Of a stretch of DNA of 64,000 nt, positions 15,344-55,326 are shown in pieces (the stretch's first letter is position 1; each line of letters starts with the position of its first letter). This DNA is from a virus (lineage: Duplodnaviria; Heunggongvirae; Uroviricota; Caudoviricetes). Position numbers and translations under genes: made by a program. Under the pieces are notes generated by a model. It was not told the origin of the DNA and did not search any database. It worked only from the letters and a program-made list of their open reading frames with translations. The stretch is from the IMG/VR virus record IMGVR_UViG_3300025765_000001; one strand, given 5' to 3'.

Positions 15344-15428
15344 TCCTGGGTAGCCTAAAGGTAAGGCAGCAGTCTGTTAAACTGCCGTGGCGAAAGTCCG
15401 AATGTTGGTTCGAGTCCAACCCCAGGAG
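15344..15428 (+). tRNA. type II (long variable arm, Tyr/Ser-like body) tRNA with anticodon GTT, discriminator G
   Basis: 85 nt. Acceptor TCCTGGG / CCCAGGA. 3-bp D-stem GCC / GGC. Anticodon arm GCAGT CTGTTAA ACTGC (perfect 5-bp stem, 7-nt loop). 18-nt variable arm. T-arm GTTGG TTCGAGT CCAAC. Architecture parallels bacterial tRNA-Tyr, but the anticodon is GUU. Confidence 0.45.
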
Positions 15429-15499
15429 CTTGATAGGTTAGTTCTTTGACAATTAGGATCGCCAAAACTATAGTCGCCGCAAGGCAGTGGTGACTATAT

Positions 15500-15581
15500 G
15501 GGGTCGTGGCAGAATGGTTATGCACCCGGCTTTTAACCGGAGCGAGAAATCGCAATGAGGGTTCGATTCCTTCTGGCCCCA
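15500..15581 (+). tRNA. type II (Leu-like body) tRNA with anticodon TTT, discriminator A
   Basis: 82 nt. Acceptor GGGGTCG / TGGCCCC. 3-bp D-stem GCA / TGC. Anticodon arm CCCGG CTTTTAA CCGGA. Variable-arm hairpin GCGA GAAA TCGC. T-arm GAGGG TTCGATT CCTTC. Confidence 0.45.
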
Positions 15582-15585
15582 CTTT

Positions 15586-16671: not shown

Positions 16672-17133
16672 ATGAATGCAACGAAACTGCTGTCCATAGG
16701 AAAGACAGCCGAAAGATTGGGAGTGCATGTTGATACTCTCAGGGAATGGGACAAAGACGGCAAACTGACCCCGGTGAAGACCCCCGGCAACCATCGCCGC
16801 TACCGCATCGAAGACATCGAAGCGTTCTGCGGCAACATGGTTGAGAAGAAGGATGACGCAAAGGCAGTCAGAGTCGCCCAAGAAAAACCTCAAAATAAAT
16901 TCAAGGATGTTTTGCATTTTGCCGATGATTACATTATAATACTTTGTCTGACTGTGGATACTCTACGATTTTGGCGGGACAAAGACGTATTTGACCTGAT
17001 TGGCACAATCGGAGGACACAACATTGATGAAGTTTTAGGTGTAATTAGTGAAAAGTCAAGTAAGGTGGACAGAGGACGAGGTAAATCTTCTCAAAGAACA
17101 CGGAGCGACAAAACTCCTGCACGAACTGGTTGA
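16672..17133 (+). pseudogene. tnpA: IS607 TnpA N-terminal MerR-like HTH domain (first part of a split tnpA; read-through into the inserted sequence)
   Basis: 'LSIGKTAERLGVHVDTLREWDKDGKLTPVKTPGNHRRYRIEDIE' matches the IS607 TnpA N-terminal HTH. Sequence after ~16870 continues into the inserted element. Confidence 0.5.
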
Positions 17134-18013
17134 GCTACTACCGAGACATACGGCAATGGGTATCTCGATCAAGAGAAAGCGGCTCGGCATAGAACTGCCA
17201 GATGAATACCTGTCAAGGCAAGGAGCATACGGCAGGTCATTTGTAAATAATGACAACTTGTGTAAGACGGATCACAGCCTCACGCTAAACGATCTTGATG
17301 ATACGACCAAACAGGTTCTTCTTGGCAGCGTCTTAGGCGACGGCAGTATCAAGAAGAATGGAAGCGGTGGGAAGATGAGGGGCAAGTGGAGTCAAAGGAA
17401 CTTCATCTTCTACGACATGCACAGAAGTCCACAATTTGACTACACGGACTGGAAGGCATCCAAACTCCAAACATTCTTAGCCAAGTCAAGCCGCAACGAT
17501 GAGAAGAACAGGTCAGAGACTTGGACGGTATCGCATCCGATCTTCACCATGTTGCGTGATAAGTTTTATCCGGCGATGACGAAGTGTAACAAGTGCATGA
17601 TCCCCGCCGACATCGTTGAGCAGATGGATGAGTTGGCGTTGTTGGTGTGGTACTTTGATGACGGCTACATCGGTGTGCGTCCTGATGGATTTGACACCAA
17701 AGGTCATCACAAACGACCGCAACCAAGAATTGCGGCAAAAGGTTGGAACTACGAAGACCTGTGCAGAGCCGCCGAGATACTGAACAAGAACTTGGGGTTG
17801 CATCTGTACGTTCTTACATTCAAGCACAGGGACGGTGTTGGTAAAGAAGTCAAGATACCAGCAAAAGACAGGGATTACTTGTTTCAGCTTTGGCAGCAGT
17901 TGGCGAAACAACACGGCGTACCTGAGTGTATGATGTACAAACTGAACCTGCACGAATGGAAAGATGTACTTGTGTATAAGCAGCCACGAACAGAAGCAGA
18001 AGGGCGACCTTGA
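17048..18013 (+). CDS. LAGLIDADG-family homing endonuclease (two LAGLIDADG motifs)
   Basis: 'LLGSVLGDGSIKKNGSG' and 'LLVWYFDDGYIGVRPDG' motifs. No terminal His-Asn and not in frame with the flanking tnpA pieces, so probably intron-encoded or free-standing rather than an intein. Confidence 0.55.
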   Translation: MKSQVRWTEDEVNLLKEHGATKLLHELVELLPRHTAMGISIKRKRLGIELPDEYLSRQGAYGRSFVNNDNLCKTDHSLTLNDLDDTTKQVLLGSVLGDGSIKKNGSGGKMRGKWSQRNFIFYDMHRSPQFDYTDWKASKLQTFLAKSSRNDEKNRSETWTVSHPIFTMLRDKFYPAMTKCNKCMIPADIVEQMDELALLVWYFDDGYIGVRPDGFDTKGHHKRPQPRIAAKGWNYEDLCRAAEILNKNLGLHLYVLTFKHRDGVGKEVKIPAKDRDYLFQLWQQLAKQHGVPECMMYKLNLHEWKDVLVYKQPRTEAEGRP

Positions 18014-18405
18014 GCGACAAAATGGGCGGGTTCTCGCCTACTGCGTCAAGAAACAGTACCAAGTAGTAAAATCCTACGAGGAAGTCGGCTCTGGCATGTG
18101 CGACACCCGACCAAAACTTCATCAAATCTTCAAGTTGGTTGAAGAGAAGCAGGTGGATAAGGTCATCGTAGAACACAAGGACCGGCTGACCCGGTTCAAC
18201 TTCAACTTTCTGGCAGCGTTCTTCGCCAGTCATGGTGTTGAGGTTGAATGGACAGAGGAAGTGCTTGGGAACAAGCGGTACGAGGACGAGTTAGTGGAAG
18301 ACATGCTCACGCTCATGTCCTCGTTCTCAAACAAAATCTACGGCAAACGATCCGCAGAGAACCGCAAGAAGAAAAAGTTAGAGAAGTTGGCGGCAAAGGA
18401 GCAAG
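17964..18405 (+). CDS. tnpA: IS607 TnpA serine-recombinase catalytic domain (second part of split tnpA; 3' end approximate)
   Basis: 'CISSHEQKQKGDLERQ...VDKVIVEHKDRLTRFNFNFL...SNKIYGKRS' matches the IS607 TnpA catalytic core. The ORF runs on in frame to 19088, overlapping tnpB, so the true stop is uncertain. Confidence 0.5.
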
Positions 18406-19545
18406 GTGAAGGTACAGAGGGGCTTCAAGACGGAGATCAGACCAAGCGACAAGCAAAAGACGCTGCTGCTCAAGAATGCAGGAGCGGCACGCTGGGCGTA
18501 CAACTACGGTCTGAGCCAGAAGAAGATCGCTCTGGAAGCCAAGACGAAGATACCCAACGCCATCGAACTGCACCGTCGCTTGAACGAGTTGAAGAAGACG
18601 GAAATACCGTGGGCTTACGAGTGCAGCAAGTGCAGTTTTCAAGAAGCACTCAGAAACCTCGACAGGGCTTTCAGCAACTTCTGGACAGCACGGAAAACCA
18701 AGAGACGCATGGGCTTCCCGAAGTTCAAGAGCAAGAAGAACGGCATCGGCGGCTTCCGGCTCACAGGGACGATCATCGTGTCCAGCGACCGCATCCAGTT
18801 GCCCCGTCTCGGCACGATCCGGCTCAAGGAGAAGAACTACCTGCCGACCGACGCCAAGATACTCAACGCCACGGTAACGGAGAGGGCTGGCAGGTGGTTC
18901 GTGAGCGTACTGGTGGAGATGGAACAGCCGGAATACACCGGCATCAAGGACAAGAAGGACGTGGTGGGCGTGGACTTGGGCATCAAGACGCTGGCGACCG
19001 TGAGCGACGGCACGGTGTACGAGAACCCGAAACCACTCAAGACCCGATTACGCAAACTACGGCGGCTACAACGAGCAGTCGCCCGTAAGGTCAAGGGCAG
19101 TAGAAACCGCAGGAAGGCGGCAGACCGTGTGGCTCGTTTGTACCTGAAAGTGAGCAACATCCGTAAGGACACCTTGCACAAGATGACGACATGCTTGACG
19201 AAAACCAAGTCGGCGGTCGGTATCGAGGACTTGAACGTGTCGGGGATGCTCAGGAACAGGTGCTTGGCACGGTCTATCGCTGATCTCGGTCTTGGTGAAT
19301 GGCGGCGGCAGATGACCTATAAGGGCGTCTGGTACAAGTGCCACATCGCCGTGGCGGACAGGTTCTTCGCCTCCAGCAAGACGTGTAGCGTCTGCGGGGA
19401 GATCAACGAGAACCTGACGCTGGCTGACCGAGAGTGGGTCTGTGAAGGTTGTGGGACGCACCATGACCGGGACTTCAACGCAAGCAGTAATTTGGAATAC
19501 GTTGCCGCCAGTTCGACGGAAACGATAAACGCCTGTGTAGTGTGA
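18406..19545 (+). CDS. tnpB: IS605/IS607-family TnpB (OrfB) RNA-guided-nuclease-like protein
   Basis: RuvC-like core and C-terminal zinc finger 'CSVCGE...CEGCGTHHDRDFNASSNL'. Length 379 aa. Confidence 0.8.
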   Translation: MKVQRGFKTEIRPSDKQKTLLLKNAGAARWAYNYGLSQKKIALEAKTKIPNAIELHRRLNELKKTEIPWAYECSKCSFQEALRNLDRAFSNFWTARKTKRRMGFPKFKSKKNGIGGFRLTGTIIVSSDRIQLPRLGTIRLKEKNYLPTDAKILNATVTERAGRWFVSVLVEMEQPEYTGIKDKKDVVGVDLGIKTLATVSDGTVYENPKPLKTRLRKLRRLQRAVARKVKGSRNRRKAADRVARLYLKVSNIRKDTLHKMTTCLTKTKSAVGIEDLNVSGMLRNRCLARSIADLGLGEWRRQMTYKGVWYKCHIAVADRFFASSKTCSVCGEINENLTLADREWVCEGCGTHHDRDFNASSNLEYVAASSTETINACVV

Positions 19546-31051: not shown

Positions 31052-32965
31052 ATGGAAAATCTAATTCTTATCCTGATCCTGGCTGGGAGCGTGGTCTTTG
31101 GTTTCTTGGTTCTGGCGTGGCTGATCACGAGATACGTTCCCAACACCAAAGAGGCCATTGTCGAGAAACTATGGTCTGGCAAAGGTTCGCTGAGCGAGGG
31201 CTATATCATCGCTCTCAACGGCGAGGCTGGTTACCAAGCCGACGTTCTGCGAGGCGGTATCCACTTCGGATACTGGCGATGGCAGTATGGTCTACACAAG
31301 ACCAAACTCATCGAGATTCGTCAGGGTAAACTCGGTTACGTCTTCTCCAGAGTCGGCGACCCGCTACCGCCTAGCCAAACTCTGGGCAAGATCGTGGAGT
31401 GCGATCATTTCCAAGACGTGAAGAAGTTTCTAGATGGCGGCGGTCAGAAAGGTCGGCAGCGTGCCATTCTTCGTGAAGGCGTTTACGCTATCAACCTTGC
31501 CGCTTTCTCCGTCATCACCGAGGATCATGTTTACTCGCTGGATCACGACAAGAGCCTGACAGAGTATCACGATCAACTCAAAACCACCAAGGGCTTTGAT
31601 CCGGTGGTCATCGGCAGTTCGACCGGCCAAGATAACATTGGCATCGTGACTACACATGATGGTCCGTCGCTGAAGCCGGGCGAGATCATTGCTCCCGCTG
31701 TTGCGACGGAAGCCAACGACCCGAATTTCCACAACAACTACCAGGACATCGAAGCCTTCTTGCGGGCCGGTGGTCAGCGTGGCTTGCAATACGCTCCGTT
31801 GCTAGACGGCACGTACTTCCTGAATCACTGGTTTGCCACGATGAAGCTGGTGCCCAAGGAGGTTGTAGACATTGGCTACGTCGGCGTAGTTGTGAGCTAC
31901 TACGGCAAGGAAGGTGCCGACACGTCCGGCACTACGTTCCGTCACGGCGAACGTGTACATGTTGGCGAGCGTGGCGTCTGGGAGAAAACGCTTGGCCCCG
32001 GCAAATATCCTTTCAACAACTTCGCTGGCAAGATCATCATGGTGCCGACGACCAACTTTGTCTTGCACTGGATCACCGGCAAAACCGAAGGGCACAAGTA
32101 CGACGAGAGCTTGCGGTCCATCGACCTTATCACGAAAGACGCCTACGAGCCGATCCTGCCACTTTCGGTCGTCGTACACATCGACTACCAGAAGGCTCCC
32201 AGCGTGATCCAGCGGTTCGGCGATGTGAAGAAGCTCATCACTCAAACCATCGACCCGATGCTGAGTGCCTACTTCCGTGACGTGGCTCACAAGAAGACCA
32301 TGCTGGAACTCGTTCACAGCCGTGATGAAATCCAGAAGCAGGCTCGCAAGGAGCTACAAGAGAAGTTCAAGCAATTCGATATCGAATGTGTTGACGTTCT
32401 GATCGGACGCCCAGAGTCCCAGGACAACGACCAGAAGATCGAAACCCTGTTAGAACAGTTGCGAACCCGGCAGCTTTCGCTCGAACAGATCGAAACCTAC
32501 AACAAGCAAGAGCAGGCTGCGGCCAAGCTCCAAACGCTGAACGAAGCCAACGCAAAGGCCGAGTTGCAAAAGGAGCTAACTTCCTCGAAGGTCAAGATCG
32601 AGATCGCTGGCAACGAAGGTTCCGCCGATCTAGAATTGGCCAAGAAGGAGGCCGAGAAGGTCAAGGTTCTCGCAGCCGCCGAAGCCGAGAAGATCACCAG
32701 CATCGGTACTTCCGAGGCCGATGTCTTGCAGAAAAAGGTCAAATCGTTCGGCGATTCCAGACTCTATGCGATGTCAGTGCTGGCTCAGTACGTCACGCAG
32801 AGCAAGCAGCCCATCGTCCCGACCAACCTGTTCACAACGGGCGGCGGGAAGCAGAATGGCGGCGTGCTTGATCTACTACTGTCACTGATAGCGGTGGAAC
32901 AAGTCAAGAAGCTGTCCAGCGACGGCCAATACGTTGAAGACAATGGGGCCTTAGCAGAGAAGTAG
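31052..32965 (+). CDS. SPFH/band-7 (flotillin/YqiK-like) membrane protein
   Basis: N-terminal TM helix, central SPFH-like region, C-terminal coiled coil with Ala/Glu-rich EA repeats ('AAAEAEKI...'). Confidence 0.55.
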   Translation: MENLILILILAGSVVFGFLVLAWLITRYVPNTKEAIVEKLWSGKGSLSEGYIIALNGEAGYQADVLRGGIHFGYWRWQYGLHKTKLIEIRQGKLGYVFSRVGDPLPPSQTLGKIVECDHFQDVKKFLDGGGQKGRQRAILREGVYAINLAAFSVITEDHVYSLDHDKSLTEYHDQLKTTKGFDPVVIGSSTGQDNIGIVTTHDGPSLKPGEIIAPAVATEANDPNFHNNYQDIEAFLRAGGQRGLQYAPLLDGTYFLNHWFATMKLVPKEVVDIGYVGVVVSYYGKEGADTSGTTFRHGERVHVGERGVWEKTLGPGKYPFNNFAGKIIMVPTTNFVLHWITGKTEGHKYDESLRSIDLITKDAYEPILPLSVVVHIDYQKAPSVIQRFGDVKKLITQTIDPMLSAYFRDVAHKKTMLELVHSRDEIQKQARKELQEKFKQFDIECVDVLIGRPESQDNDQKIETLLEQLRTRQLSLEQIETYNKQEQAAAKLQTLNEANAKAELQKELTSSKVKIEIAGNEGSADLELAKKEAEKVKVLAAAEAEKITSIGTSEADVLQKKVKSFGDSRLYAMSVLAQYVTQSKQPIVPTNLFTTGGGKQNGGVLDLLLSLIAVEQVKKLSSDGQYVEDNGALAEK

Positions 32966-40762: not shown

Positions 40763-40860
40763 GCGGGATGGTGCAGGATACGGTTCCTTCGCCAAATGGT
40801 ATGGCACTAGCTGTCAAAGCTGGAGTTGTGGGTTCAATTCCCACAGGTTCAAATCCCGTA
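40763..40860 (+). ncRNA. ~95-nt tRNA-like element with two consecutive T-arm-like hairpins
   Basis: GTGGG TTCAATT CCCAC followed by ACAGG TTCAAAT CCCGT. Ends GCGGGAT...ATCCCGT could pair. Confidence 0.25.
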
Positions 40861-44912: not shown

Positions 44913-44993
44913 GGGGCCTTGGTCTAACGGTAAGGCGTCGTGTTAAAGTCACAGTGCCGCACGAAGATGTCGGTTCGATTCCGGCAGGTTCCA
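44913..44993 (+). ncRNA. 81-nt tRNA-like RNA (type II length) with anticodon region expanded to a 5-bp stem enclosing 17 nt
   Basis: Acceptor GGGGCCT / AGGTTCC (two G-U). T-arm GTCGG TTCGATT CCGGC. TCGTG...17 nt...CACGA in place of a 7-nt anticodon loop. Confidence 0.3.
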
Positions 44994-45070: not shown

Positions 45071-47179
45071 ATGTCAGTACCAGAGATGTTGGAAAGACGG
45101 GTGTGGCCCATCGAGAAAGCCCTGCAACGCATCCTTGTTGGGCAGAGGAACGTCATCCGCCGTGTGACTATGGCGTTATTCGCTGTCGGACAGCGGGACT
45201 TCTATCCAGATGGTACACGATTTTTAGGAACAGGCCACGTTCTATGCGAAGGCGGTGTAGGAACAGGAAAATGTCTTGGTAAAGGCACCCCCGTCTTGAT
45301 GTTCGACGGAACTATAATTCCCGTTGAATCCGTTAAGACTGGAGACCTGTTGATGGGACCAGATTCTCTGCCCAGGAAGGTTATTGCTCTCGGACACGGT
45401 TTTGGAGAGCTATATCGGGTGATACCAAAAAAGGGCGATTCGTATGTTGTCAATGACGAGCATATCCTGTCATTTAAGATGACTAGTCGTGGTCGAAATA
45501 GGCAGGGCAATTTTCCACGTTCTGGCGACAATGTTCCTGGCATGATTTATAACATGTCAGTCAAAGAATACTTGGGAAGGTCAGAGCGATTCAAGAGTCA
45601 TGCCAAGGGATATAGAGTTGGCATCGAGTTTGATGAGCGAATTGTGCCACTGGACCCGTATTTTTTTGGCGTGTGGTTGGGAGATGGGATCAGTCGCACC
45701 GCACAGGTTTGCAATACGGATAACGAAATTATTGCGTACATTCGTAAGATGGCAAACAAGTACAGGCTGCGGTTCAACACTTACACAGCAAGCGGGAAAG
45801 CTCCGATTCACTCGTTGTGGGGGAAAAAATTCCATCCTAATGCGATATTGAGTGCTTTACGTGAAATGAACGTATTGCAAAACAAACATGTTCCACAAAT
45901 ATACAAAGCAAATTCACGACGAGTGAGATTGCAAATTTTGGCCGGACTGATGGACACAGATGGCAGTCTGTCGGCTGGTTGCTATGACTTCGTAAACAAG
46001 TCAAAACAACTTGCCGATGATGTGGTTTATTTGGCGAGGTCTCTAGGATTCGCCGCTTATGTCAAACCATGCACCAAGGTTTGCAAAAACAACGGTAAAA
46101 AGGGTCGATATTACCGAGTATCGATTTCTGGAAATTTATCGGAAGTTCCGGTTCGCATTGCCAAGAAAAAGGCTTCTCTTCGTCGGCAGAAGAAGAATGT
46201 GTTGGTGACTGGAATCAAAGTAGAACCAGAGGGCTATGGAGAATACTTTGGTTTCGAGATTGAGGGACCAGACAGGCTGTTTCTCCTGGGAGATTTCACG
46301 GTCACACACAATACCGTTCTCTGTAAAGCACTTTCTAGGTTGCTGGCTGGCAACTCCAAACGAGTATCGGGAATGCCCGACGCACTTGCCAGCGATATTA
46401 CTGGTTGCGAGATCATCTTGCTGACCGGCGATACCAAGACGGTCCAGGGGCCGCTATTCTGCAACGTTATGCTGGCTGACGAGATCAACCGTTTCCCGCC
46501 CAAAGCCCAAAATGCGTTCATCGAAGCACTGGCTGAAGGCTGTGTCACCATCGCAAATGAAACTATTCGTTTGAAGCAGCCTTTCTTCTGCCTCGCTACA
46601 CAGAACCCGACTGAGCAAAAAGGCACGAGTCGTCTACAAGAGGCTCTGTCAGACCGGTTTATGTTCAAACTCGTCATGCGTGAGACTACAGAGCAGGAGA
46701 AGATTGATATCGCAAAGCGGACACACCACTTCGATGTCACGAACCTGAATCCTGTAATTACGACAGACGAAGTATACGAAGCTAGAGAGTATTTCTTCAA
46801 CAATACTCACGTCAGCGATGAGGTACGTCGCTACGCTGCTCGCTTGCTTCGTGCAATCAACCATCCAGCGGAATACAAACTTCTTGAGAAGGAACGGGCC
46901 TTGCTTGCGGGCGATAACATCTTCAAGCAAAAGCCAGCGGTCAACGACCGTGCCATGCTGCATATGGAAGGTGCGGCGATGATGGAGGCGGTTATGAGTG
47001 GGAGGGACTACGTGATCCCCGCCGACGTTGCTGCTGTTGCGGCAGATGCCCTCCGTGCCCGTCTTCTCCTGTCTGAGTCTAGTTTGCACCTTCTGGCGGA
47101 ACTACACCCAGGCAAAACCGAAACCGAGTTGGTGGACTATTTCATAGACGAAACTCTGTCTAGGGTGCGACACACTTGA
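45071..47179 (+). CDS. MoxR-family AAA+ ATPase containing a LAGLIDADG intein inserted in the Walker A P-loop
   Basis: Extein 'HVLCEGGVGTGK|...|TVLCKALSRLLAG' reconstitutes 'GVGTGKT'. Downstream MoxR motifs 'LLADEINRFPPKAQNAFIEALAEG...ATQNPTEQKGTSRLQEALSDRF'. Confidence 0.8.
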   Translation: MSVPEMLERRVWPIEKALQRILVGQRNVIRRVTMALFAVGQRDFYPDGTRFLGTGHVLCEGGVGTGKCLGKGTPVLMFDGTIIPVESVKTGDLLMGPDSLPRKVIALGHGFGELYRVIPKKGDSYVVNDEHILSFKMTSRGRNRQGNFPRSGDNVPGMIYNMSVKEYLGRSERFKSHAKGYRVGIEFDERIVPLDPYFFGVWLGDGISRTAQVCNTDNEIIAYIRKMANKYRLRFNTYTASGKAPIHSLWGKKFHPNAILSALREMNVLQNKHVPQIYKANSRRVRLQILAGLMDTDGSLSAGCYDFVNKSKQLADDVVYLARSLGFAAYVKPCTKVCKNNGKKGRYYRVSISGNLSEVPVRIAKKKASLRRQKKNVLVTGIKVEPEGYGEYFGFEIEGPDRLFLLGDFTVTHNTVLCKALSRLLAGNSKRVSGMPDALASDITGCEIILLTGDTKTVQGPLFCNVMLADEINRFPPKAQNAFIEALAEGCVTIANETIRLKQPFFCLATQNPTEQKGTSRLQEALSDRFMFKLVMRETTEQEKIDIAKRTHHFDVTNLNPVITTDEVYEAREYFFNNTHVSDEVRRYAARLLRAINHPAEYKLLEKERALLAGDNIFKQKPAVNDRAMLHMEGAAMMEAVMSGRDYVIPADVAAVAADALRARLLLSESSLHLLAELHPGKTETELVDYFIDETLSRVRHT
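45272..46312 (+). other. intein (347 aa) with LAGLIDADG homing-endonuclease domain
   Basis: Begins 'CLGKGTPVLMFDG' (block A) directly after GTGK. Contains 'FFGVWLGDGIS' and 'ILAGLMDTDGS'. Ends 'FTVTHN' followed by extein Thr (+1). Confidence 0.75.
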
Positions 47180-48021
47180 AAAAGAACTTTCGATCTATCG
47201 AAATCACTGTTAAGAAACTGCTCAATACTTTTCCAACTGGCGGGCATGTAAGTTCACTCAAGAACTCCATTATTGACGTTGATGTGGTCCGAGAGTATCA
47301 GCCCGGTGACAAGCGGTTGGATAGTCGAGCCAGCCTCCGTACCAACAGCATTATGTCGAGGGTATTCACCCCCGACAAGTCAATGAACGTGATGTTGGTT
47401 TTGGATGTTAGTTGCTCTCAGGCATCTAAGTTCGAGTCGGCTATTCTTGTGTGCCTGTATCTGTGCTATCTGGCAAATCAGTCCAACGACCCGGTTGGTC
47501 TGACAACTTTTGGCGATAGAGTGTCACTTTCTATCCAGCCGGATGAGGACATTCGGAATGTTACCTCTGTACTAGAACAAATTTACTATAGAGGCAATCT
47601 ATCACCTGGGAGTAACCTGGACGACGCTCTTCGGAGGATTGGCAATCAAGAACCCTCGAATACTCTCACTGTGCTGGTAAGTGATTTCTGTTTCCCGTTT
47701 AGCGATCGTATAGTTGGTCTACTACGTTGTATATCATGCGGCATAAATAACGTGATGATAGCTCCAATTCTTGCAAACTCTCAGGAATGGTCTTTCGATG
47801 TATTGCCATTTCGGGTAGACTTTAAGGATTCGGAAAGCAACGATGCAACTAACTGGAATTTTGGATCGGAGAAGGCACACAAAGGTCATCTGGCGGCTTT
47901 TGAGAAGTGGCAAACCGATCTAAAGGCCGTCCTGCATCAAGGAAGGGTCGAGCCTATCTTGATGCAGGTAGATAAGCCTGATTTTATGATGCCCTTGGTC
48001 AAATTTTTCCTGAGAGCGTAA
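47176..48021 (+). CDS. DUF58-family protein (MoxR partner)
   Basis: 'VVREYQPGDKRLD' matches the DUF58 RxYxPGD signature. Start overlaps the MoxR stop. Confidence 0.7.
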   Translation: MKKNFRSIEITVKKLLNTFPTGGHVSSLKNSIIDVDVVREYQPGDKRLDSRASLRTNSIMSRVFTPDKSMNVMLVLDVSCSQASKFESAILVCLYLCYLANQSNDPVGLTTFGDRVSLSIQPDEDIRNVTSVLEQIYYRGNLSPGSNLDDALRRIGNQEPSNTLTVLVSDFCFPFSDRIVGLLRCISCGINNVMIAPILANSQEWSFDVLPFRVDFKDSESNDATNWNFGSEKAHKGHLAAFEKWQTDLKAVLHQGRVEPILMQVDKPDFMMPLVKFFLRA

Positions 48022-48022
48022 C

Positions 48023-49504
48023 ATGGACCTGATTTCTGCTTTCACTCTGTTCTTCGGTATCTTCGCTTGCATAGATCGGCAGCCGGTCTATCAGATCGAC
48101 CATTTTTACTACTACAACGCTGAACACAAGCAGATCGGTTTGCCGTTGCAAGGTGGGGTGTTGGCTCCCAACGGTCCCGGTTTACAAGACTTCATTGACG
48201 CTGGCAAACACGGCGAGGCGACAGTTAAGAAGCTGGAGAAAAGCCAGTTTGAGGGTGTTGTTTTCGTCTGCGACGACAACCGGAAAATGCTTGAGTTGCT
48301 TAGAAAGTTGAGCGACAAGAAGATAGAAGCGTACCCTATAGTCAAGTTCTCTAACATGCTCTGTGTGCCCAGCGACACGGTTTTGGTGAAAACGAAGAAG
48401 CATGTTACCGAGGCCACGTTGAAGCAACGCCTCAAGCACAACGGCAAACTAGTTGTCGATAAAATCGACAAAGCGGCACCGTACACATACCAAATCAAGA
48501 TCAGCAAGATGTCGTTGCCTCCCAACATTCTTGTCACGGCTAATATGCTCGCAGAGGATACGGCGTGGTTTGAACATGCACGAGCGATGTTCCGCCCCAT
48601 ATATCAGCCTGTTGTGGCGTGGGTCGTCGTAGAACGACCAGCGAGTTCGACCGTTGGCGAGGAACGCCTTCTGAAGCTTGTAATCGAAGTACACAAGCCT
48701 TCGATCAAGATTCTGAAGGACACCATTCCGAGCCTTGGGCATAATAAATGGATTCCTCAGCCTCAGACGCTCGATGTTTGGTGTGAATTCGGGAAGCCAT
48801 CGCCACACAAGGTAGAAGCCACGCAAGACGGCTACATGATCACGATCACGCAGCCGTTTCGCTTTTACTCAATTGTCCCGATCATTATTCCGCCTGCTGG
48901 CTTTGTCTACGAAGACGATGATGGGGAGAAATATATGGCTAACATCCAGGGCTGCAAATATCGAAACTCTAGTCTGCTTGCTGGGACAAATATCGATGAC
49001 ATACAGCCAAGACCCCCCATTGGATCACTGCCTTTGTTAGACGCTCCTGAGCCTCTGGTTCCCGAAACCAGCCTGTATGGTTATCGACCGCTGTTGTTAT
49101 ACGGAATGGCGATGGTCGGGGTTGGGTCGCTGGTGTTGGTGCTTTTGGTGTTGGCAAAGGCCAATCGTTTTCGCATCAACACGCTGTTGCGTTGGGCCGG
49201 AAGTCGAGAGCGTGCCCGTTACTGGAATGAGCTAGAATCGACTGCGTTCCACCTGAATGCTGGCGACAACTGGCGTCTGGCCTACCAACAGGTTACGGAT
49301 GCACTCTCGAATGTGCTGAGCGAGTTTTATGATGTCAAACGGCCATTGTCGGCTTTGGAACACAAAGACACGCTTCTTCAGTCCATCGTAGGCGAGCTAG
49401 AACTGTTCTATAAGTCCGACTATGAGCCGAACGAGGCTGCTGTGGCGGCTCTGGTTGCCAACCTGAACACCTTTGTCAAGGAACGGGTCAAGTTCAATGT
49501 TTGA
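48023..49504 (+). CDS. membrane-anchored protein of the Bat-like operon
   Basis: 493 aa, single C-terminal-proximal TM helix. Immediately follows the DUF58 gene. Confidence 0.4.
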   Translation: MDLISAFTLFFGIFACIDRQPVYQIDHFYYYNAEHKQIGLPLQGGVLAPNGPGLQDFIDAGKHGEATVKKLEKSQFEGVVFVCDDNRKMLELLRKLSDKKIEAYPIVKFSNMLCVPSDTVLVKTKKHVTEATLKQRLKHNGKLVVDKIDKAAPYTYQIKISKMSLPPNILVTANMLAEDTAWFEHARAMFRPIYQPVVAWVVVERPASSTVGEERLLKLVIEVHKPSIKILKDTIPSLGHNKWIPQPQTLDVWCEFGKPSPHKVEATQDGYMITITQPFRFYSIVPIIIPPAGFVYEDDDGEKYMANIQGCKYRNSSLLAGTNIDDIQPRPPIGSLPLLDAPEPLVPETSLYGYRPLLLYGMAMVGVGSLVLVLLVLAKANRFRINTLLRWAGSRERARYWNELESTAFHLNAGDNWRLAYQQVTDALSNVLSEFYDVKRPLSALEHKDTLLQSIVGELELFYKSDYEPNEAAVAALVANLNTFVKERVKFNV

Positions 49505-50570
49505 ACACCCATACTTTTTGGCACTCGGTCTGCTAGCGTTAGCATTTTTATTCTACCGCTGCAACCGGTACTTCTTGACCCATGCCTATGTCAAGGCCCT
49601 GAAAACTACGCAGGACGCAATTGGCGGGGGAAGTGGGCGTTTTAGATTTCAGAGTTCGATGCTGGCATTGGGGTGGGTGGTCTTGATTATTGCCGCTTCG
49701 GGTATGTCCTGGGGTTTCACACAACCCGTTAGGAAGCAACAAGTCCACAAATACGTACTGGTAAACGATGGCTCTGGTTCTATGGTGGATGGGAACAAAC
49801 TACAAGGGAGGGGGAAGCAACTAGATACTGTTCACAAAGGAAACCAAGCGTTTCTCAACATGCTCGCCCAGAGAGATGACGGGAGCAAGGATGTGGTGGG
49901 AGCGGTGGTGTTTTCCAATGATGCCTACATTGTCTCTTACTTAGTTGATGATCCCGCCTTTGTTGAAAAAAAGTTGAGCTTCATCGACTATAGGCTGCCT
50001 CCCCTTGCAGGAGGCACGCTGTCGGATAGGTCTTTGTGGTGTGCCGTGGAAATGCTGATGCGTGATGGTAAGAAAGCGTCGGATGAAGACATGCTCGCAA
50101 TGCAGTTGACTATGTACGGTCCAGAGGAGAAATACAAGCGAACGGAGAAGATGGAAGAGCTTGTTAAGAAGTACCAGCCAATTGTAGAAGGCGGCAATAT
50201 CGTTATCTTTACCGATGGGATATTCCAACCCTGGGGCAACGCCCAGATGATGTCCACTTTCAAATTGCTCGATCTGTGTAAGGATTTGCGTATTAAGGTC
50301 TACCTAATTTCGGTCGAGACGATAGACCCGCTGTTGTTCGCAAGCATGAAAGAGACCGGAGGGTTTGCTATACTCTTGCGTGGCTTTGATGCCAAGGTGT
50401 TTGAGCAGACCTACACAGATATAGTGAGAAGCAACGCTCAAGAGGAAATCGTTGTAGACCAGCCCATCAGGAAACCGTTGTCTCCGATCTTGGCCCCAAT
50501 AGCTTTTGCTCTTATTGCTGCGGGTTTGCTGTTGAGGCTGACATTTAATCGAAACTACACAGAGGTCTAA
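49497..50570 (+). CDS. vWA-domain membrane protein (BatA/BatB-like)
   Basis: N-terminal TM helices. MIDAS 'LVNDGSGSM'. Start overlaps the upstream stop. Confidence 0.6.
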   Translation: MFEHPYFLALGLLALAFLFYRCNRYFLTHAYVKALKTTQDAIGGGSGRFRFQSSMLALGWVVLIIAASGMSWGFTQPVRKQQVHKYVLVNDGSGSMVDGNKLQGRGKQLDTVHKGNQAFLNMLAQRDDGSKDVVGAVVFSNDAYIVSYLVDDPAFVEKKLSFIDYRLPPLAGGTLSDRSLWCAVEMLMRDGKKASDEDMLAMQLTMYGPEEKYKRTEKMEELVKKYQPIVEGGNIVIFTDGIFQPWGNAQMMSTFKLLDLCKDLRIKVYLISVETIDPLLFASMKETGGFAILLRGFDAKVFEQTYTDIVRSNAQEEIVVDQPIRKPLSPILAPIAFALIAAGLLLRLTFNRNYTEV

Positions 50571-50571
50571 C

Positions 50572-51381
50572 ATGAAAAAGCTACTACTCCTCGTCCTGGT
50601 TACACTCGCTGGCGGAAGCTATATGATGTTCTATAGCAAGGCCCAGGATTACGAACGCCAGCAGAAGGAAACAGAGTGCCAAGCACAAATCAAGAAAGTC
50701 GATGCCGTAAATGCGTTCATTAAGAGCATTAACGAGGCGAAGACAGTCGCTCAATTAGAAAGCTTGGAAGCAGAGTTGGCTCATTGGCTTGATCCAGACG
50801 GAGATGCCCACAAAAAAGTTAGGTCCACGATTTTGCTCAAAAAGGCCAGGGTATCTTTTGATGAGGCCGAGGAGCTTCTACAACAAGCAATCAGCTTGCA
50901 GCAGGCATTGAATTTACCACCGTTGCCTCCACCGTTGCCTCCACCACAGTCGGAGCTAGCGGACCCGCATAATCACTATAATTCCGCACCGCCGTCCAGA
51001 CCGGAACTGTCGATTCATCCAGCGGCTCAGGAGGCTTTAATCAAAGCCGACAAGCTGTACGTGGACAGCAAAAAATATCTGGATAAGCTCAGCGACATTC
51101 CAGGTGATACGAGCTATAACTTCTCGCTTAATTACCTCAAGGGAGAGGTATATTATCGTCACACGATGTTTCGTTCGTCGTCCGAAACTGTTCAGGACTT
51201 GTTCACACAGACTGCCACGTACTACAAGAAAGCTCTGTCGTACAAGCCCGGAGACGTTGATACCACTGTCAACATCGAACTGCTTCTTAAACAGCAGCAG
51301 GGCATGATGGGCGAGGCAGGACAATCTCAGCCTCAACGGATGTTGAACCAAATGGGCATGGGCAAGTCCAAAGGCAACTGA
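50572..51381 (+). CDS. TPR-like protein with Pro-rich linker (BatC-like)
   Basis: N-terminal TM/signal segment, PPLPPPLPPP linker, TPR-like helical repeats at the C-terminus. Confidence 0.45.
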   Translation: MKKLLLLVLVTLAGGSYMMFYSKAQDYERQQKETECQAQIKKVDAVNAFIKSINEAKTVAQLESLEAELAHWLDPDGDAHKKVRSTILLKKARVSFDEAEELLQQAISLQQALNLPPLPPPLPPPQSELADPHNHYNSAPPSRPELSIHPAAQEALIKADKLYVDSKKYLDKLSDIPGDTSYNFSLNYLKGEVYYRHTMFRSSSETVQDLFTQTATYYKKALSYKPGDVDTTVNIELLLKQQQGMMGEAGQSQPQRMLNQMGMGKSKGN

Positions 51382-51382
51382 T

Positions 51383-52423
51383 ATGTTCGAGAACCCCTTA
51401 TTTCTCTGGGCACTCCTGTTTGTGCCCCTGGTAGTAATACTGCTGGTGTATTCGTGGCGTTGCTTCAAGAAATTCGAGCAATCGCCACGAATTGCCTCTT
51501 TTCTATACGCAAGTAGGCGTCCTGGCTGGGCAGCCCGTAGGGTTATTGCTGTCGTTTGGTTGGTTTCTCTGTCTCTGTTGATTCTTGGTCTTGCTCAGCC
51601 GTATGTAGATGTCCCGACTTCAGAGAAAAAGCACAAGAACGTCAGGATATTCTTCGTCGTGGATGTCTCTAGATCGATGGTCTATGCCGAGGATATCAAG
51701 CCCAATAGAATGGTTGCGGCACGGTCTGAGTTGGTAGAACTCTACAAGCAATTGGATGGGCATTATGAGTGCAGCATCATTCCTTTTGCTGGTTCGCCGA
51801 ACGTCTATTACTGCCCCCTGACGTACAGTAAGCGAGTTATTCTGCCGCTCCTTGAAGACCTGGGGCCGGACACGGCACCAGAATATGGCACTGATTTGGT
51901 TAAGGCTGTGTCGGCTCTTCAAAACATTCTCAAGCAAGAAAAGCTAGATCAAGACGGTATCAACCTCATCATTCTCGTCAGCGACGGCGGCAAGGAGGAG
52001 GCAGAGGCGACGAACAGGGTAAGACTACATGCGTTGGTCCAAAGCATGGCCTCGAAGAACTGTAAGTTCTTCACGGTTGGTGTTGGTGGTCGTGATCCCT
52101 GTGAGCTAATCAAACGGTACGGCGATGGCTCGTTCGATGATTTTTTGAAGGAAGACGGCAAGATACAGGTCTCTCATTTGGATGAGGAGATTTTGCAGGC
52201 AGTGGCAGATCAAGGCAACGGCAAATATTGTCATTTTCATCAGAAAGATCAGATGCGGGGCTTTGTAAACGAAGCGATACAGCGAAACCGCATAGAAGAG
52301 GGAGCCATTGTCGTCACAAAAAGGGTCTACCTGGAGTATTATTTGTACGCCCTCTGTGCTATACTTCTGTGGTTCGGTTTCATAGCCAACAAAACATATG
52401 CATCAGAGACCAGAAGTAAGTGA
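51383..52423 (+). CDS. vWA-domain membrane protein (BatA-like)
   Basis: Two N-terminal TM helices. MIDAS 'FFVVDVSRSM'. C-terminal TM. Confidence 0.65.
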   Translation: MFENPLFLWALLFVPLVVILLVYSWRCFKKFEQSPRIASFLYASRRPGWAARRVIAVVWLVSLSLLILGLAQPYVDVPTSEKKHKNVRIFFVVDVSRSMVYAEDIKPNRMVAARSELVELYKQLDGHYECSIIPFAGSPNVYYCPLTYSKRVILPLLEDLGPDTAPEYGTDLVKAVSALQNILKQEKLDQDGINLIILVSDGGKEEAEATNRVRLHALVQSMASKNCKFFTVGVGGRDPCELIKRYGDGSFDDFLKEDGKIQVSHLDEEILQAVADQGNGKYCHFHQKDQMRGFVNEAIQRNRIEEGAIVVTKRVYLEYYLYALCAILLWFGFIANKTYASETRSK

Positions 52424-53020: not shown

Positions 53021-53619
53021 CGCCGTTCCTCAGCGAGACAACGAACAGCGAACCTCAACACGCCTACCAATACGGCATCCCAACGGTCGATTTCTACTTG
53101 GGTCATAATATCTCTGGCGGGCAAACCGTGGCCCTCGTAGTACCGCCTGCACCTGCTGATCCAGGGCTGTTCAGCGATCTCGCAGAATAGAAAATCCATT
53201 ACGCTCCGGTAGGAGTCCATCTTCTTCCGGGTAGAGACGTACTTCAATGCCAGAAGCGTGTCGGTGTCTTCCAGGGCCGTTTCTGCCAAGGGAAAGATCG
53301 TGGTCAAATACTCGCTCTCGCAGCGGATTGACAGTTCAGGACGGATTGAGCAGGCCAGTTGCATGAGTACCTCCTTGCTGTGGGCTAAAAGCAAGTATCG
53401 TGCCAAGCGAGGAAACACCCAGGGGCCGGTGCCGGAAGAGGCTTGTCGTAACTGGAGTTACGGAAAACGGAACTAGGTTGGCCTTCCACAAGATTGTTTG
53501 TGCGGTCAACAAAATCGATTGTGGAGTCGAACGATACCGATCATGGCGTCGGGCGAATGTCGTCAAAAGGCGGCGACCGTCGCCGTAAGGTGACGCCAAA
53601 AGGCGTCGGAGGGGTAATG

Positions 53620-53919
53620 GAGTACCGTATGTTTGCACGGAGGGTGCTGGATCGGCCTCTCCGGGTTGCCATCCTCGATCACCGAGGGCTGCGTTTTGTC
53701 GCCAAAGTCCTCAACACTAGCGAAGGCGGGTTGGGGCTTCTTTGCGATCAGGCTTTTGAGATTGGCTCGGTGCTGCAAGTCATTACTGGGTCGCTTTGGT
53801 GTGACACAAAAGTTCGGCATTGCACTAGAACAGGAAATGAATACACTGTTGGTGTGGAGTACACAGACGCTCACAAGGGCAAAGCGATCACCAACAGTCT
53901 GAATAGAGGTCATTTATGA
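53620..53919 (+). CDS. PilZ-domain protein (putative c-di-GMP receptor)
   Basis: 'RRVLDRPL' (RxxxR) and 'NTSEGGLGL' ((D/N)xSxGG). Start taken at the internal Met of the 53494 ORF. Confidence 0.45.
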   Translation, partial: EYRMFARRVLDRPLRVAILDHRGLRFVAKVLNTSEGGLGLLCDQAFEIGSVLQVITGSLWCDTKVRHCTRTGNEYTVGVEYTDAHKGKAITNSLNRGHL

Positions 53920-54380
53920 GTGTACTAGAAACGATTCAGTTCCGAATCACCGCAGCGATGAAGTCGGGCAACGACACAGAGAAGAATCTTTTTCGAGTCG
54001 TTCTCGGCGAGGCACAGATGGCCGCTGTCCGCAAGGGAAAGGACAAGCCGGACGACGAAACCATGATCGCTACCATTCGCAAGGTTATCAACGGTCTGAA
54101 TGAGAACATTGTTCTGGTCAAAGGGTCGGCCACAGGCGGCTCAACCGTGCAGCAGGAAACCGAGCTAGCTCTGCTGGCACCGTTCCTGCCCGCTACCTGG
54201 GACCAGCCGCAGATCGAGGCATTCTTCCTCAATGGCGATAACCTGGTTTTTGAACAAATTCGTGACGCCAAGAGCGAGGGAGCGGCGATGGGCCTTGCTA
54301 TGAAGACGCTCAAAGGCGAATCGGCACCGGTCAACGCCGACGACGTGAAGGCTGTTGTCACCAAGATTCGTACATCCTGA
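53916..54380 (+). CDS. GatB/YqeY-domain protein
   Basis: C-terminal 'AAMGLAMKTLKGESAPVNADDVKAVVTKIR' and overall helical pattern match the YqeY family. Confidence 0.55.
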   Translation: MSVLETIQFRITAAMKSGNDTEKNLFRVVLGEAQMAAVRKGKDKPDDETMIATIRKVINGLNENIVLVKGSATGGSTVQQETELALLAPFLPATWDQPQIEAFFLNGDNLVFEQIRDAKSEGAAMGLAMKTLKGESAPVNADDVKAVVTKIRTS

Positions 54381-54864: not shown

Positions 54865-55326
54865 ATGTCGATCTTCGAGAGGGAATCCAAGAAGGATTTC
54901 GATTTCGAGAAGGACATCCTGGGGCTTCAAATGGTGAGGCCCTATAAGCACGAGGGTCGCTGGGTTTTCGATGACCAAGAAGGACTTCGCCGGGATATCG
55001 CACCCGCTGGTGCTACTGTAGCGACTCTCTCTCCAATTGTGGTCGGGGCCGACCGCTTAATTATGGAGGGAACCAGGAGGAAGGGAATCGAAAATCCAGA
55101 AAGTGGATTTCGTCTCTACTTCTCAGATAAGGCGTTTCCTGATGCCGATGTAGAGTTCCGCTGGGAGCGGGAATGCTATGACGGGCATATCTACAACGTT
55201 TTACCATGCGGAGATAAAATTGCCATTCCCTCCGACCAACAGGCTTGGATTTGTCCTTACCTGATGTTATACTACAAACAACCGCCGAAGATTCTATTTC
55301 TGAAGATCGAGGCTGATGGGAGATAA
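54865..55326 (+). CDS. hypothetical protein
   Basis: 153-aa ORF. Confidence 0.45.
   Translation: MSIFERESKKDFDFEKDILGLQMVRPYKHEGRWVFDDQEGLRRDIAPAGATVATLSPIVVGADRLIMEGTRRKGIENPESGFRLYFSDKAFPDADVEFRWERECYDGHIYNVLPCGDKIAIPSDQQAWICPYLMLYYKQPPKILFLKIEADGR

Follow-up and report, generated by a model that had tools for sequence, protein, structure and literature searches.

A conserved six-gene cassette of huge phages that resembles bacterial MoxR-DUF58-BatA/BatB operons

Operons that combine a MoxR ATPase with DUF58 and von Willebrand factor A (vWA) proteins, known as the Bat type, are widespread in bacteria and after 25 years still lack an assigned biochemical function (PMC3557215). MoxR ATPases whose partners carry a vWA domain with a metal ion-dependent adhesion site (MIDAS) are assembly or remodelling chaperones, a role that is established for the family and has been discussed for the Bat proteins (PMC3557215), and bacterial Bat and MoxR mutants display defects in stress resistance, aerotolerance and virulence (PMC3557215; PMC11834572). 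In viruses, group 2.2 (T4-like) jumbo phages encode a MoxR-vWA-metallopeptidase pair for which a role in virion assembly has been proposed, with Acidianus two-tailed virus (ATV) cited as precedent (Iyer et al. 2021, PMC7824862). Here we describe a six-gene MoxR/DUF58/vWA cassette at positions 45071-52423 of a 64,000-nucleotide stretch of DNA (the window) from the virus record IMGVR_UViG_3300025765_000001. The cassette is real, conserved and undescribed, and it is built largely from known families. We propose that it is a phage-lineage-specific variant of the bacterial MoxR-DUF58-BatA/BatB ('Bat-type') trans-membrane chaperone complex, which a clade of huge phages carries as a conserved set of six genes and which acts on the host envelope, an interpretation to which we give about an even chance. 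An original prediction made from the letters of the window had called such a module on a phage uncharacterised. The literature searched agrees, in that it describes no Bat-type MoxR/DUF58/vWA phage cassette, but other types of MoxR-vWA pair are known in viruses (PMC7824862). The main text of Al-Shayeb et al. on huge phages makes no mention of MoxR, vWA or inteins (PMC7162821).

The span is filled by exactly the six co-directional open reading frames (ORFs) that the original prediction placed there, with intergenic space near nil:

g1, 45071..47179, + strand: MoxR-type AAA+ ATPase precursor of 702 amino acids (aa), consisting of N-extein, intein and C-extein; predicted spliced product of 355 aa
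Intein in g1, 45272..46312, + strand: aa 68-414, 347 aa, with a LAGLIDADG homing-endonuclease domain
g2, 47176..48021, + strand: DUF58 protein of 281 aa, soluble, vWA-like, with a DxSxS MIDAS motif; TTG start
g3, 48023..49504, + strand: orphan membrane protein of 493 aa
g4, 49497..50570, + strand: BatA-like vWA membrane protein of 357 aa, counted from ATG 49497
g5, 50572..51381, + strand: all-helical protein of 269 aa with an N-terminal anchor
g6, 51383..52423, + strand: BatB-like vWA membrane protein of 346 aa, with a predicted three-transmembrane (TM) architecture shared with g4

The packing is operon-like, though true overlap occurs at two of the five junctions only and not, as had been supposed, between all six genes: g1 and g2 share 4 nt (TTGA), g3 and g4 share 8 nt when measured from ATG 49497, and 1-nt spacers lie at g2/g3, g4/g5 and g5/g6. 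ATG 49497 is the g4 start used by metagenome gene callers and yields the N-terminus MFEHP, parallel to MFENP in g6; a TTG at 49473 upstream is the mechanical alternative. Scans for consensus promoters and terminators gave counts that were not above shuffled expectation.

The MoxR, DUF58 and vWA identities suggested earlier were borne out by hidden Markov model (HMM) searches, in which g1, g2 and g6 pass the Pfam thresholds. With AAA_3 at 117.4 bits against a cut-off of 27 (E 5e-34) and AAA_lid_2 at 29.7 bits against 22.7, g1 combines an AAA_3 domain above its gathering score with an AAA lid, the definition of the MoxR-proper (MRP) group, and its closest solved relative in the Protein Data Bank (PDB) is 2r44_A (3.6e-41). 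The second protein is a DUF58 member (PF01882, 75.3 bits against a cut-off of 23.4, E 5e-21; VWA_2 at 1e-6) with DVSCS at residue 77 and no TM segment. For g6, VWA_2 (49.2 bits, 9e-13) and VWA (32.4 bits, 1e-7) both exceed their cut-offs. The vWA assignment of g4 stands through its family, since VWA_2 matches each of the 15 members of the g4/g6 family that were scanned and the MIDAS is invariant, but g4's own score of 22 bits (E 2e-4) stays below the gathering cut-off of 27. The complete MIDAS (D-x-S-x-S, T, D) is invariant in an alignment of g4 homologues, g6 homologues and one cellular BatA, so that g4 and g6 possess the vWA domain with full MIDAS of BatA and BatB. The curated BatA/BatB cut-offs are not reached. 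In g6 the BatA N-terminal domain (PF07584) aligns along all 77 positions of the model and scores 20.5 bits, under the cut-off of 25.9; it does not match g4, with which g6 nevertheless has the MFE(H/N)P start in common. Among the NCBIfam models, which are Leptospira-specific 'exception' models, VWA_BatB_Lepto matches g6 at 87.6 bits (8e-25), far under its cut-off of 350, and VWA_BatA_Lepto gives 45 bits against 380. Across all PDB chains, g6 has just two sequence relatives, 4jdu_A, an 'aerotolerance-related membrane protein' (3e-12), and 3ibs_A, 'BatB' (5e-11), both of them BatB/aerotolerance vWA domains from Bacteroides. As judged from sequence, g4 and g6 are vWA proteins of the BatA/BatB type with three predicted TM segments.

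The first ORF had been recognised as a MoxR gene, and the ATPase is confirmed, but the 347-aa intein inside the 702-aa frame had been overlooked. Pfam detects Hom_end_hint at aa 68-137 (48.2 bits against 32.1), LAGLIDADG_3 (31.7 against 22.5) and Hom_end at aa 274-355 (26.7 against 21.1). The insertion sits between K67 and the threonine of the Walker A GKT, with junctions GVGTGK|CLGKG and TVTHN|TVLCK, and the Walker A (GxxGxGKT), Walker B (DE), sensor and arginine residues are intact only once it is conceptually removed. Taking out aa 68-414 rebuilds GVGTGKT and gives a 355-aa protein colinear with intein-free homologues of 355-356 aa, to which the exteins are 66-81% identical; G61, G64, K67, T415, D470, E471, N512, R529 and R627 are invariant in the family alignment (A5). 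C68 (Cys1), the block-B histidine, the terminal H413-N414 and the +1 threonine T415 are all present, and the intein is probably competent to splice. Matches of g1 to the PHROG 'terminase large subunit' are confined to the intein stretch and therefore reflect intein-bearing terminases.

Within the g1 family, a full-length intein occupies the same site in locus L013 and in protein P0128, which falls in one 90% cluster with the intein-free P0014; in P0048 the endonuclease is partly deleted, P0018 carries a mini-intein, and in most alleles the site is empty. Occupied, decayed, mini and empty sites are the stages expected of a homing intein. P-loop inteins occur in phage terminase large subunits, DnaB and RecA. 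The g1 intein resembles P-loop inteins with LAGLIDADG endonucleases in its insertion inside Walker A with the +1 threonine of GKT as nucleophile, in its Hint plus LAGLIDADG architecture, in having alleles with and without the insertion at one site and in the decay of the endonuclease to a mini-intein; it differs in that the host protein is a MoxR ATPase. To our knowledge no MoxR intein has been described, though our literature search was not aimed at MoxR inteins. The T4-type portal gene of a related huge phage (L004 1-410, on a 633,754-bp contig) also bears an intein (Intein_splicing plus Portal_T4), so that inteins seem common in this phage group.

The closest described system is the Bat operon (BatA-E of B. 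fragilis, BB0170-BB0176 of Borrelia, and the loci of Leptospira, Francisella and Riemerella). The phage cassette shares with it a MoxR gene (AAA_3) followed by DUF58, and a pair of paralogous vWA proteins that have three predicted TM segments, begin with MFxxP and possess a full MIDAS, with a predicted helical-repeat protein among them. The module had been described as complete, a description that does not fit: BatD and BatE are absent, and position 3 is taken by a 470-490-aa protein of an orphan family instead of a small DUF4381-type protein. In addition, the TPR-like phage gene passes no TPR model and is placed between the vWA genes, the BatA N-domain and NCBIfam BatA/BatB scores are under threshold, and the phage MoxR is at most 43% identical to its cellular counterparts, has no match to the bpMoxR N-domain, contains an intein in the window and is carried by huge phages. 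Among cellular loci, the metagenomic L033 has the canonical arrangement, with a general gene order like that of the phage cassette (MoxR, DUF58, a weak DUF4381, BatA with the BatA N-domain, a BatB/TPR fusion and BatD). Halarcobacter ebronensis (L015) shares the first two genes, but its locus holds four genes rather than six (MoxR, DUF58, a 128-aa membrane protein and a TM-anchored vWA protein), and the 128-aa protein aligns to the tail of g3 at a non-significant hhalign probability of 5.8%. The known viral MoxR-vWA pairs (ATV p618/p892, the jumbo-phage pair and the CobS/CobT-like phrog_249) likewise join a viral MoxR-family ATPase to vWA/MIDAS partners; they are two-component, soluble or peptidase-fused, and have a proposed role in virion assembly, whereas the present cassette is of Bat type and has six genes, among them DUF58 and those of four membrane proteins with a predicted periplasmic orientation.

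The position-3 protein, g3, has no match in Pfam, NCBIfam, PHROG or PADLOC, and distant members of its family contain no Pfam domain. A full HMMER profile search of 1.84 billion representative proteins recovered 68 relatives, 430-590 aa in length bar evident fragments, and the gene stands at position 3 in every related locus. It is by far the fastest-evolving component, at 24-29% identity where MoxR is at 70-81%. An AlphaFold2 (AF2) model with a predicted local distance difference test (pLDDT) score of 64.6 suggests an N-terminal hydrophobic helix followed by mixed alpha/beta (ferredoxin-like) and beta-sandwich domains (aa 27-313); the ectodomain of ~330 aa would be joined through a disordered linker to a TM segment at 358-376 (by hydrophobicity) and a C-terminal helical bundle of ~115 aa. 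Foldseek of this model gave weak ferredoxin-like and immunoglobulin-like matches that are uninformative. A DUF4381-type identity was rejected, as g3 has no DUF4381 domain and hhalign gave probabilities of 5.8% and 0.2% against two cellular position-3 proteins. BatD was rejected at a probability of 0.8% against a cellular BatD, and none of the six proteins matches the BatD domain (PF13584, DUF11-like).

A TPR protein equivalent to BatC had been predicted at g5, and this did not survive profile searches. The protein has no significant HMM match, its PDB profile search was empty, TPR_1 reached at best E 0.13-0.2 in two of 11 family members, and hhalign against a cellular BatB-TPR fusion gave a probability of 0.4%. 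In the AF2 model (pLDDT 73.5) an N-terminal anchor is followed by long helices, a linker rich in proline and C-terminal helical hairpins, and Foldseek matched it to 14-3-3 proteins and idealised or designed TPRs at probabilities up to 0.99 and 24-25% identity over 86-97 columns, with E only 0.05-0.2; the match to the idealised TPR 1na3 covers 86 columns at 24% identity (probability 0.99). The family consensus, NYxKGEIYYR...YYKKAL.YKPGD..T.VNIELL, is TPR-like in look. A TPR-like fold, here of the TPR/14-3-3 kind and taken from a moderate-confidence model, is therefore plausible, while homology to BatC is not supported, TPR HMMs and hhalign being non-significant. All members of the g5 family end, after a disordered stretch, in a near-invariant ...ML-N-Q..G.GKSKGN tail (window 51364-51381); as a matter of speculation, this conserved end could serve in docking or provide a MIDAS site with a carboxylate ligand.

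The predicted topology suggests how these parts might work together. Both g4 and g6 are predicted to consist of a TM segment, a 29-aa loop rich in lysine and arginine (5 and 8 positive charges), a second TM segment, a vWA domain of ~245 aa, a third TM segment and a short basic tail, and the positive-inside rule therefore places their vWA domains on the periplasmic side. This three-TM, periplasmic-vWA prediction agrees with the topology of the Borrelia BatA homologue BB0173, whose periplasm-facing vWA domain was mapped experimentally (PMC5700661). A single N-terminal anchor is predicted for g5, the TM segment of g3 is followed by a lysine- and arginine-rich stretch that would leave its 117-aa tail in the cytoplasm, and g1 and g2 have no hydrophobic segments. 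We propose that g1 is translated as a precursor from which the intein would excise itself, rebuilding Walker A (GVGTGK-T) and yielding an active 355-aa MoxR that assembles a cytoplasmic AAA+ ring. The soluble, vWA-like DUF58 protein g2, with its MIDAS, could serve as the cytoplasmic adaptor of this ring. The other four proteins would insert in the host cytoplasmic membrane, where g4 and g6 would display their metal-binding vWA/MIDAS domains in the periplasm and g5 would supply a TPR-like scaffold on a proline-rich stalk. With its fast-evolving ectodomain and cytosolic helical tail, g3 could connect the periplasmic parts to g2 and g1, coupling being possible via this tail and/or the basic loops of g4 and g6. 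The periplasmic assembly would thus comprise the MIDAS domains of g4 and g6, the scaffold supplied by g5 and the ectodomain of g3, and during infection the whole complex might spend ATP on building or reshaping some protein complex at the host envelope. Very large phages replicate slowly, and the likeliest purpose would be that the envelope of the infected cell stays intact and tolerates stress throughout this long cycle. Given a module as described, we put such maintenance, or a remodelling, of the infected cell's envelope at a little under an even chance.

The same periplasmic parts could instead belong to a device for superinfection exclusion or inter-phage conflict, in which the vWA/MIDAS domains, the TPR-like protein and the g3 ectodomain bind parts of an incoming phage or the host receptor or injection machinery, and the MoxR/DUF58 motor powers or resets them. 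The predicted periplasmic location of g3 and of the vWA domains would suit such a device, as would the rapid evolution of g3, expected of a target-recognition part; that rate could equally be adaptation to differing host envelopes. Membrane and surface proteins have been reported in huge phages and may change susceptibility to other phages (Al-Shayeb et al., PMC7162821), and predicted conflict systems have MoxR-vWA pairs at their core (PMC13622651). The cassette is not a conflict-type MoxR-vWA system, since it has no bpMoxR match, no propeller and no effector. The MoxR-vWA-beta-propeller ternary conflict system (Kaur et al. 2020, cited in PMC13622651) was accordingly rejected as a candidate: neither g1 nor most of the phage clade has bpMoxR (PF20030) (precomputed Pfam lists give it for two of ~63 phage-clade MoxRs, and it is present in the cellular matches), and the module encodes no beta-propeller, effector or toxin domain. 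PADLOC returned weak generic AAA matches for g1 (DolB 2e-6) and nothing for g2-g6. We regard an exclusion device as unlikely, and rank it next after envelope maintenance.

The cassette is conserved throughout the phage clade. When the spliced MoxR was searched against 5.8 billion proteins, ~63 clusters were returned with identities of 54-83%. Except where they contain an intein or are truncated, these proteins have ~355 aa, and their contigs reach 634, 623, 595, 587, 586 and 281 kb; below this group, identity in the protein search falls sharply to 39% or less, the level of cellular MoxRs. The phage MoxRs form a discrete clade, with all cellular MoxRs recovered at 43% identity or less. When the six window proteins were compared by tblastn with all 102 loci collected, all six genes were found in order at every locus with a clade MoxR and enough flank (17 phage-clade loci), counting L011, whose g3 ORF is present and too divergent for tblastn. 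Genes like g3, g4 and g5 were found in none of ~77 cellular MoxR loci (MoxR identity 31-43%), a set that came from a metagenome scan with the MoxR-clade alignment in which cellular MoxRs predominated through a generic Walker-B-region pattern; the scan itself returned only three clade members, all short. Some of these cellular loci have a DUF58 gene (21-30%), and four have a g6-like vWA gene. In some lineages, one to four small ORFs lie between MoxR and DUF58 (L006 11068-11277, L098 11068-11646, L100 11068-12350); among their products are a 69-aa protein that is conserved, one of 64-76 aa with CxxC, another of 63 aa and, in L100, one of 242 aa, so that the cassette is not strictly of six genes everywhere.

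Substitution patterns point the same way. Synonymous divergence (dS) is saturated in most comparisons, nonsynonymous divergence (dN) ranges from 0.13 to 0.9, and dN/dS is 0.10-0.24 where measurable; the order of conservation is g1, then g2, g4 and g6 at about equal levels, then g5 and finally g3. The module has the GC content of the window and its composition is not anomalous there, and across lineages the GC of the locus ranges from 24.5% to 50%. Saturated dS, low dN/dS, matching GC and the discrete clade together indicate long-term purifying selection inside phage genomes and not recent capture from a host. This evidence bears on the possibility that the cassette is a recently captured host operon, carried as a passenger (a moron or auxiliary set) that duplicates the host Bat system with no phage adaptation. 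Component families typical of cellular envelopes would fit that origin, and huge phages do hold many cellular-type genes, as the aminoacyl-tRNA synthetase, release factor, IF-1 and ligase genes in the window and its flanks illustrate. Set against the distinctness of the phage MoxR clade, the lack of g3, g4 and g5 homologues in the cellular loci, the unremarkable composition of the module, and its conservation across such a range of GC with dS saturated, we consider a recent passenger quite improbable.

The surroundings of the cassette differ by lineage and include head genes, PolA, NUDIX and DnaB-like genes, tRNAs and a divergently oriented HtrA-like protease gene; since the same six genes recur despite differing flanks, they travel as a unit. 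The 633,754-bp contig has Portal_T4, Peptidase_S77 prohead-protease and Gp23 capsid genes, and the module follows 3.4 kb downstream of them. Such a position would be natural for a virion-assembly chaperone in which MoxR and vWA proteins aid assembly of a very large capsid or tail at the membrane, comparable to ATV p618/p892 and the T4-like jumbo MoxR-vWA-peptidase pair. T4-type prohead assembly, moreover, begins at the inner membrane. The role proposed for the pair in jumbo phages of group 2.2 (PMC7824862) adds to this argument, but adjacency to head genes is seen in one lineage and gives way elsewhere to replication genes, tRNAs and the HtrA-like protease gene. Four of the six proteins are membrane-anchored with their bulk predicted to be periplasmic, away from capsid assembly, and the architecture is Bat-type, not CobS/CobT-like or peptidase-fused. 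A part in virion assembly accordingly seems improbable to us.

The window is part of a 463,644-bp contig (ENA ERZ27245623 k141_14709; also JGI Ga0114941_100001). A phage-like context with tRNA clusters and HNH genes around the module had been noted, and both observations hold, the phage context by association. The window contains 44 tRNAs by ARAGORN and 44 by Rfam, which found only tRNAs and no rRNA or other RNA family, an HNH gene at 58298-59131, and genes for LAGLIDADG and resolvase proteins, an NAD-ligase, a Ro/TROVE protein, a class I aminoacyl-tRNA synthetase and YqeY. RF-1-like, IF-1-like, sigma-70 and amidoligase genes are found in the 10-kb extensions on either side, and the whole matches the genome style of the huge phages of Al-Shayeb et al. 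2020 (PMC7162821). By blastn the sole DNA match among 50,697 phage records was LR756511.1 (SR-VP_PHAGE_COMPLETE_CIR-CU-CL_42_23), a curated complete 595,163-bp phage in which the six genes are all present and identically ordered and MoxR has no intein; megablast of 24 kb against the phage collection gave no match. IMG/VR contigs of 340,934, 210,307, 187,011, 62,798, 41,630 and 38,608 bp also carry the module, these copies having come from alignment-based scans, as a scan of IMG/VR with g6 alone gave no match. No non-module genes common to the window and the flanks of related loci were found, so that the flanks do not strengthen its phage status.

An ordinary cellular operon on a fragment of a bacterial, or Candidate Phyla Radiation (CPR), chromosome would also account for the absence of a capsid, portal or terminase gene from the window and from the 10-kb extensions read. 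No hallmark gene having been seen on the readable parts of the contig, its phage status rests on relatives and genome style. A narrow g3 alignment searched against GTDB genomes hit one contig only (L014), in a metagenome-assembled genome labelled Candidatus Saccharibacteria, and the divergent copy in L009 has cellular-looking neighbours (MFS, GDPD, FAD-oxidase and DUF2238), both of which would be in keeping with a cellular origin. Against such an origin stand the 44 tRNA genes in 64 kb among LAGLIDADG, HNH and resolvase genes with no rRNA; the contig is 464 kb long, and the nearest relatives of the module are on a curated complete phage, which supplies the sole phage-database DNA match, on IMG/VR viral contigs and beside T4-like structural genes. 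Association thus argues strongly that the genome of the window is that of a huge phage, and a chromosomal fragment seems very improbable.

Several points weigh against a Bat-type complex of phages that acts on the host envelope, beyond the lack of hallmark genes on the contig. Two of the six proteins, g3 and g5, have no demonstrable homology to any Bat component. The topology derives from hydrophobicity and positive-inside counting only. The function would be assigned by analogy, and the carriers are uncultured phages; for LR756511.1 no host phylum rises above threshold in the table of Al-Shayeb et al. Leptospira bat deletions have no phenotype, and the cellular function of Bat is itself unsettled (PMC3557215). 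Finally, the most divergent copies, L007/L008/L014 and L009/L010, have MoxRs 55-58% identical to g1, and the subclade of L007/L014 and L009 may represent phage contigs that were binned wrongly or else cells of a lineage akin to the donor, an uncertainty that limits the claim that the module is exclusive to phages. A cluster look-up of proteins flanking this subclade gave no names. In these loci a divergently transcribed gene for a trypsin/PDZ (HtrA/DegP-like) protease lies directly upstream of MoxR (L007/L014 3806-4831, - strand; L009 3487-4536, - strand).

Several further features of the window deserve mention. A 637-aa SPFH/Band-7 membrane protein (31052-32965) matches part of the complete 642-kb phage LR756502.1 at 35% identity and is the only non-module link found to another curated huge phage. 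At 2446-4371 lies the gene for a TROVE/Ro60-like RNA-binding protein (E 9e-19), homologues of which are annotated 'Ro-like RNA binding protein' in many phages of Streptomyces and Gordonia and in Bacillus phage G; Rfam found no Y-RNA-like match near it. PilZ-like, YqeY/GatB-like and DUF6717 proteins are encoded downstream of the module (window 53494-54380, 54865-55326), and a second, weak DUF6717 copy exists elsewhere on the contig (L104 12605-12892).

Approximately 42 tRNA genes, many of them isoacceptor duplicates, are found within 31 kb at 14273-44993. Two other genes break into this region, one for a LAGLIDADG endonuclease (17048-18013) and one for a serine recombinase/resolvase (17964-19088). 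Unusually long tRNA calls (81-97 nt) at 56170-56266, 55798-55887, 44913-44993, 15344-15429 and 15500-15582 include one with a four-base anticodon (taac) and one tRNA-Ile(tat), and these may contain introns or long variable arms; the call at 44913-44993, a tRNA-Phe(aaa), lies 78 nt upstream of g1. A 71-nt tRNA with anticodon UCA (40782-40852) was called tRNA-SeC by ARAGORN, but it is too short for a true selenocysteine tRNA and therefore looks like an opal-suppressor type. An RF-1/PCRF-like gene of 212 aa (L103 13721-14359) lies ~100 nt past the 3' end of the window, and together the two may relate to stop-codon reassignment or its regulation. The genes g1, g3 and g5 nevertheless end in TGA and are read normally in code 11.

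For annotation, the g1 intein matters: gene callers report a 702-aa 'MoxR/terminase-like' protein, and the predicted functional product is 355 aa long. In the g1 family, moreover, one can follow the decay of a P-loop intein through several stages, in a kind of host protein for which we know of no described intein.

Since the cassette is streamlined, strongly conserved and restricted to a clade of huge phages, it implies a direct use to the virus within a single infection, which narrows the plausible functions to envelope assembly, protection or exclusion. A membrane-spanning chaperone machine would join the cellular-style systems encoded by huge phages, and the compact six-gene set is suited to heterologous reconstitution. 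In its boldest form, which we think possible and on the whole unlikely, the cassette would be a dedicated six-subunit trans-envelope MoxR/vWA machine of very large phages (187 to 634 kb contigs), with a g3 component found nowhere else, installed by the phage in the inner membrane of its host, where it would guard or reshape periplasm and envelope during infection: a phage-specific envelope organelle and not a borrowed stress operon. If this proves true, huge phages could offer the first setting in which a biochemical role is assigned to Bat-type MoxR/DUF58/vWA systems.

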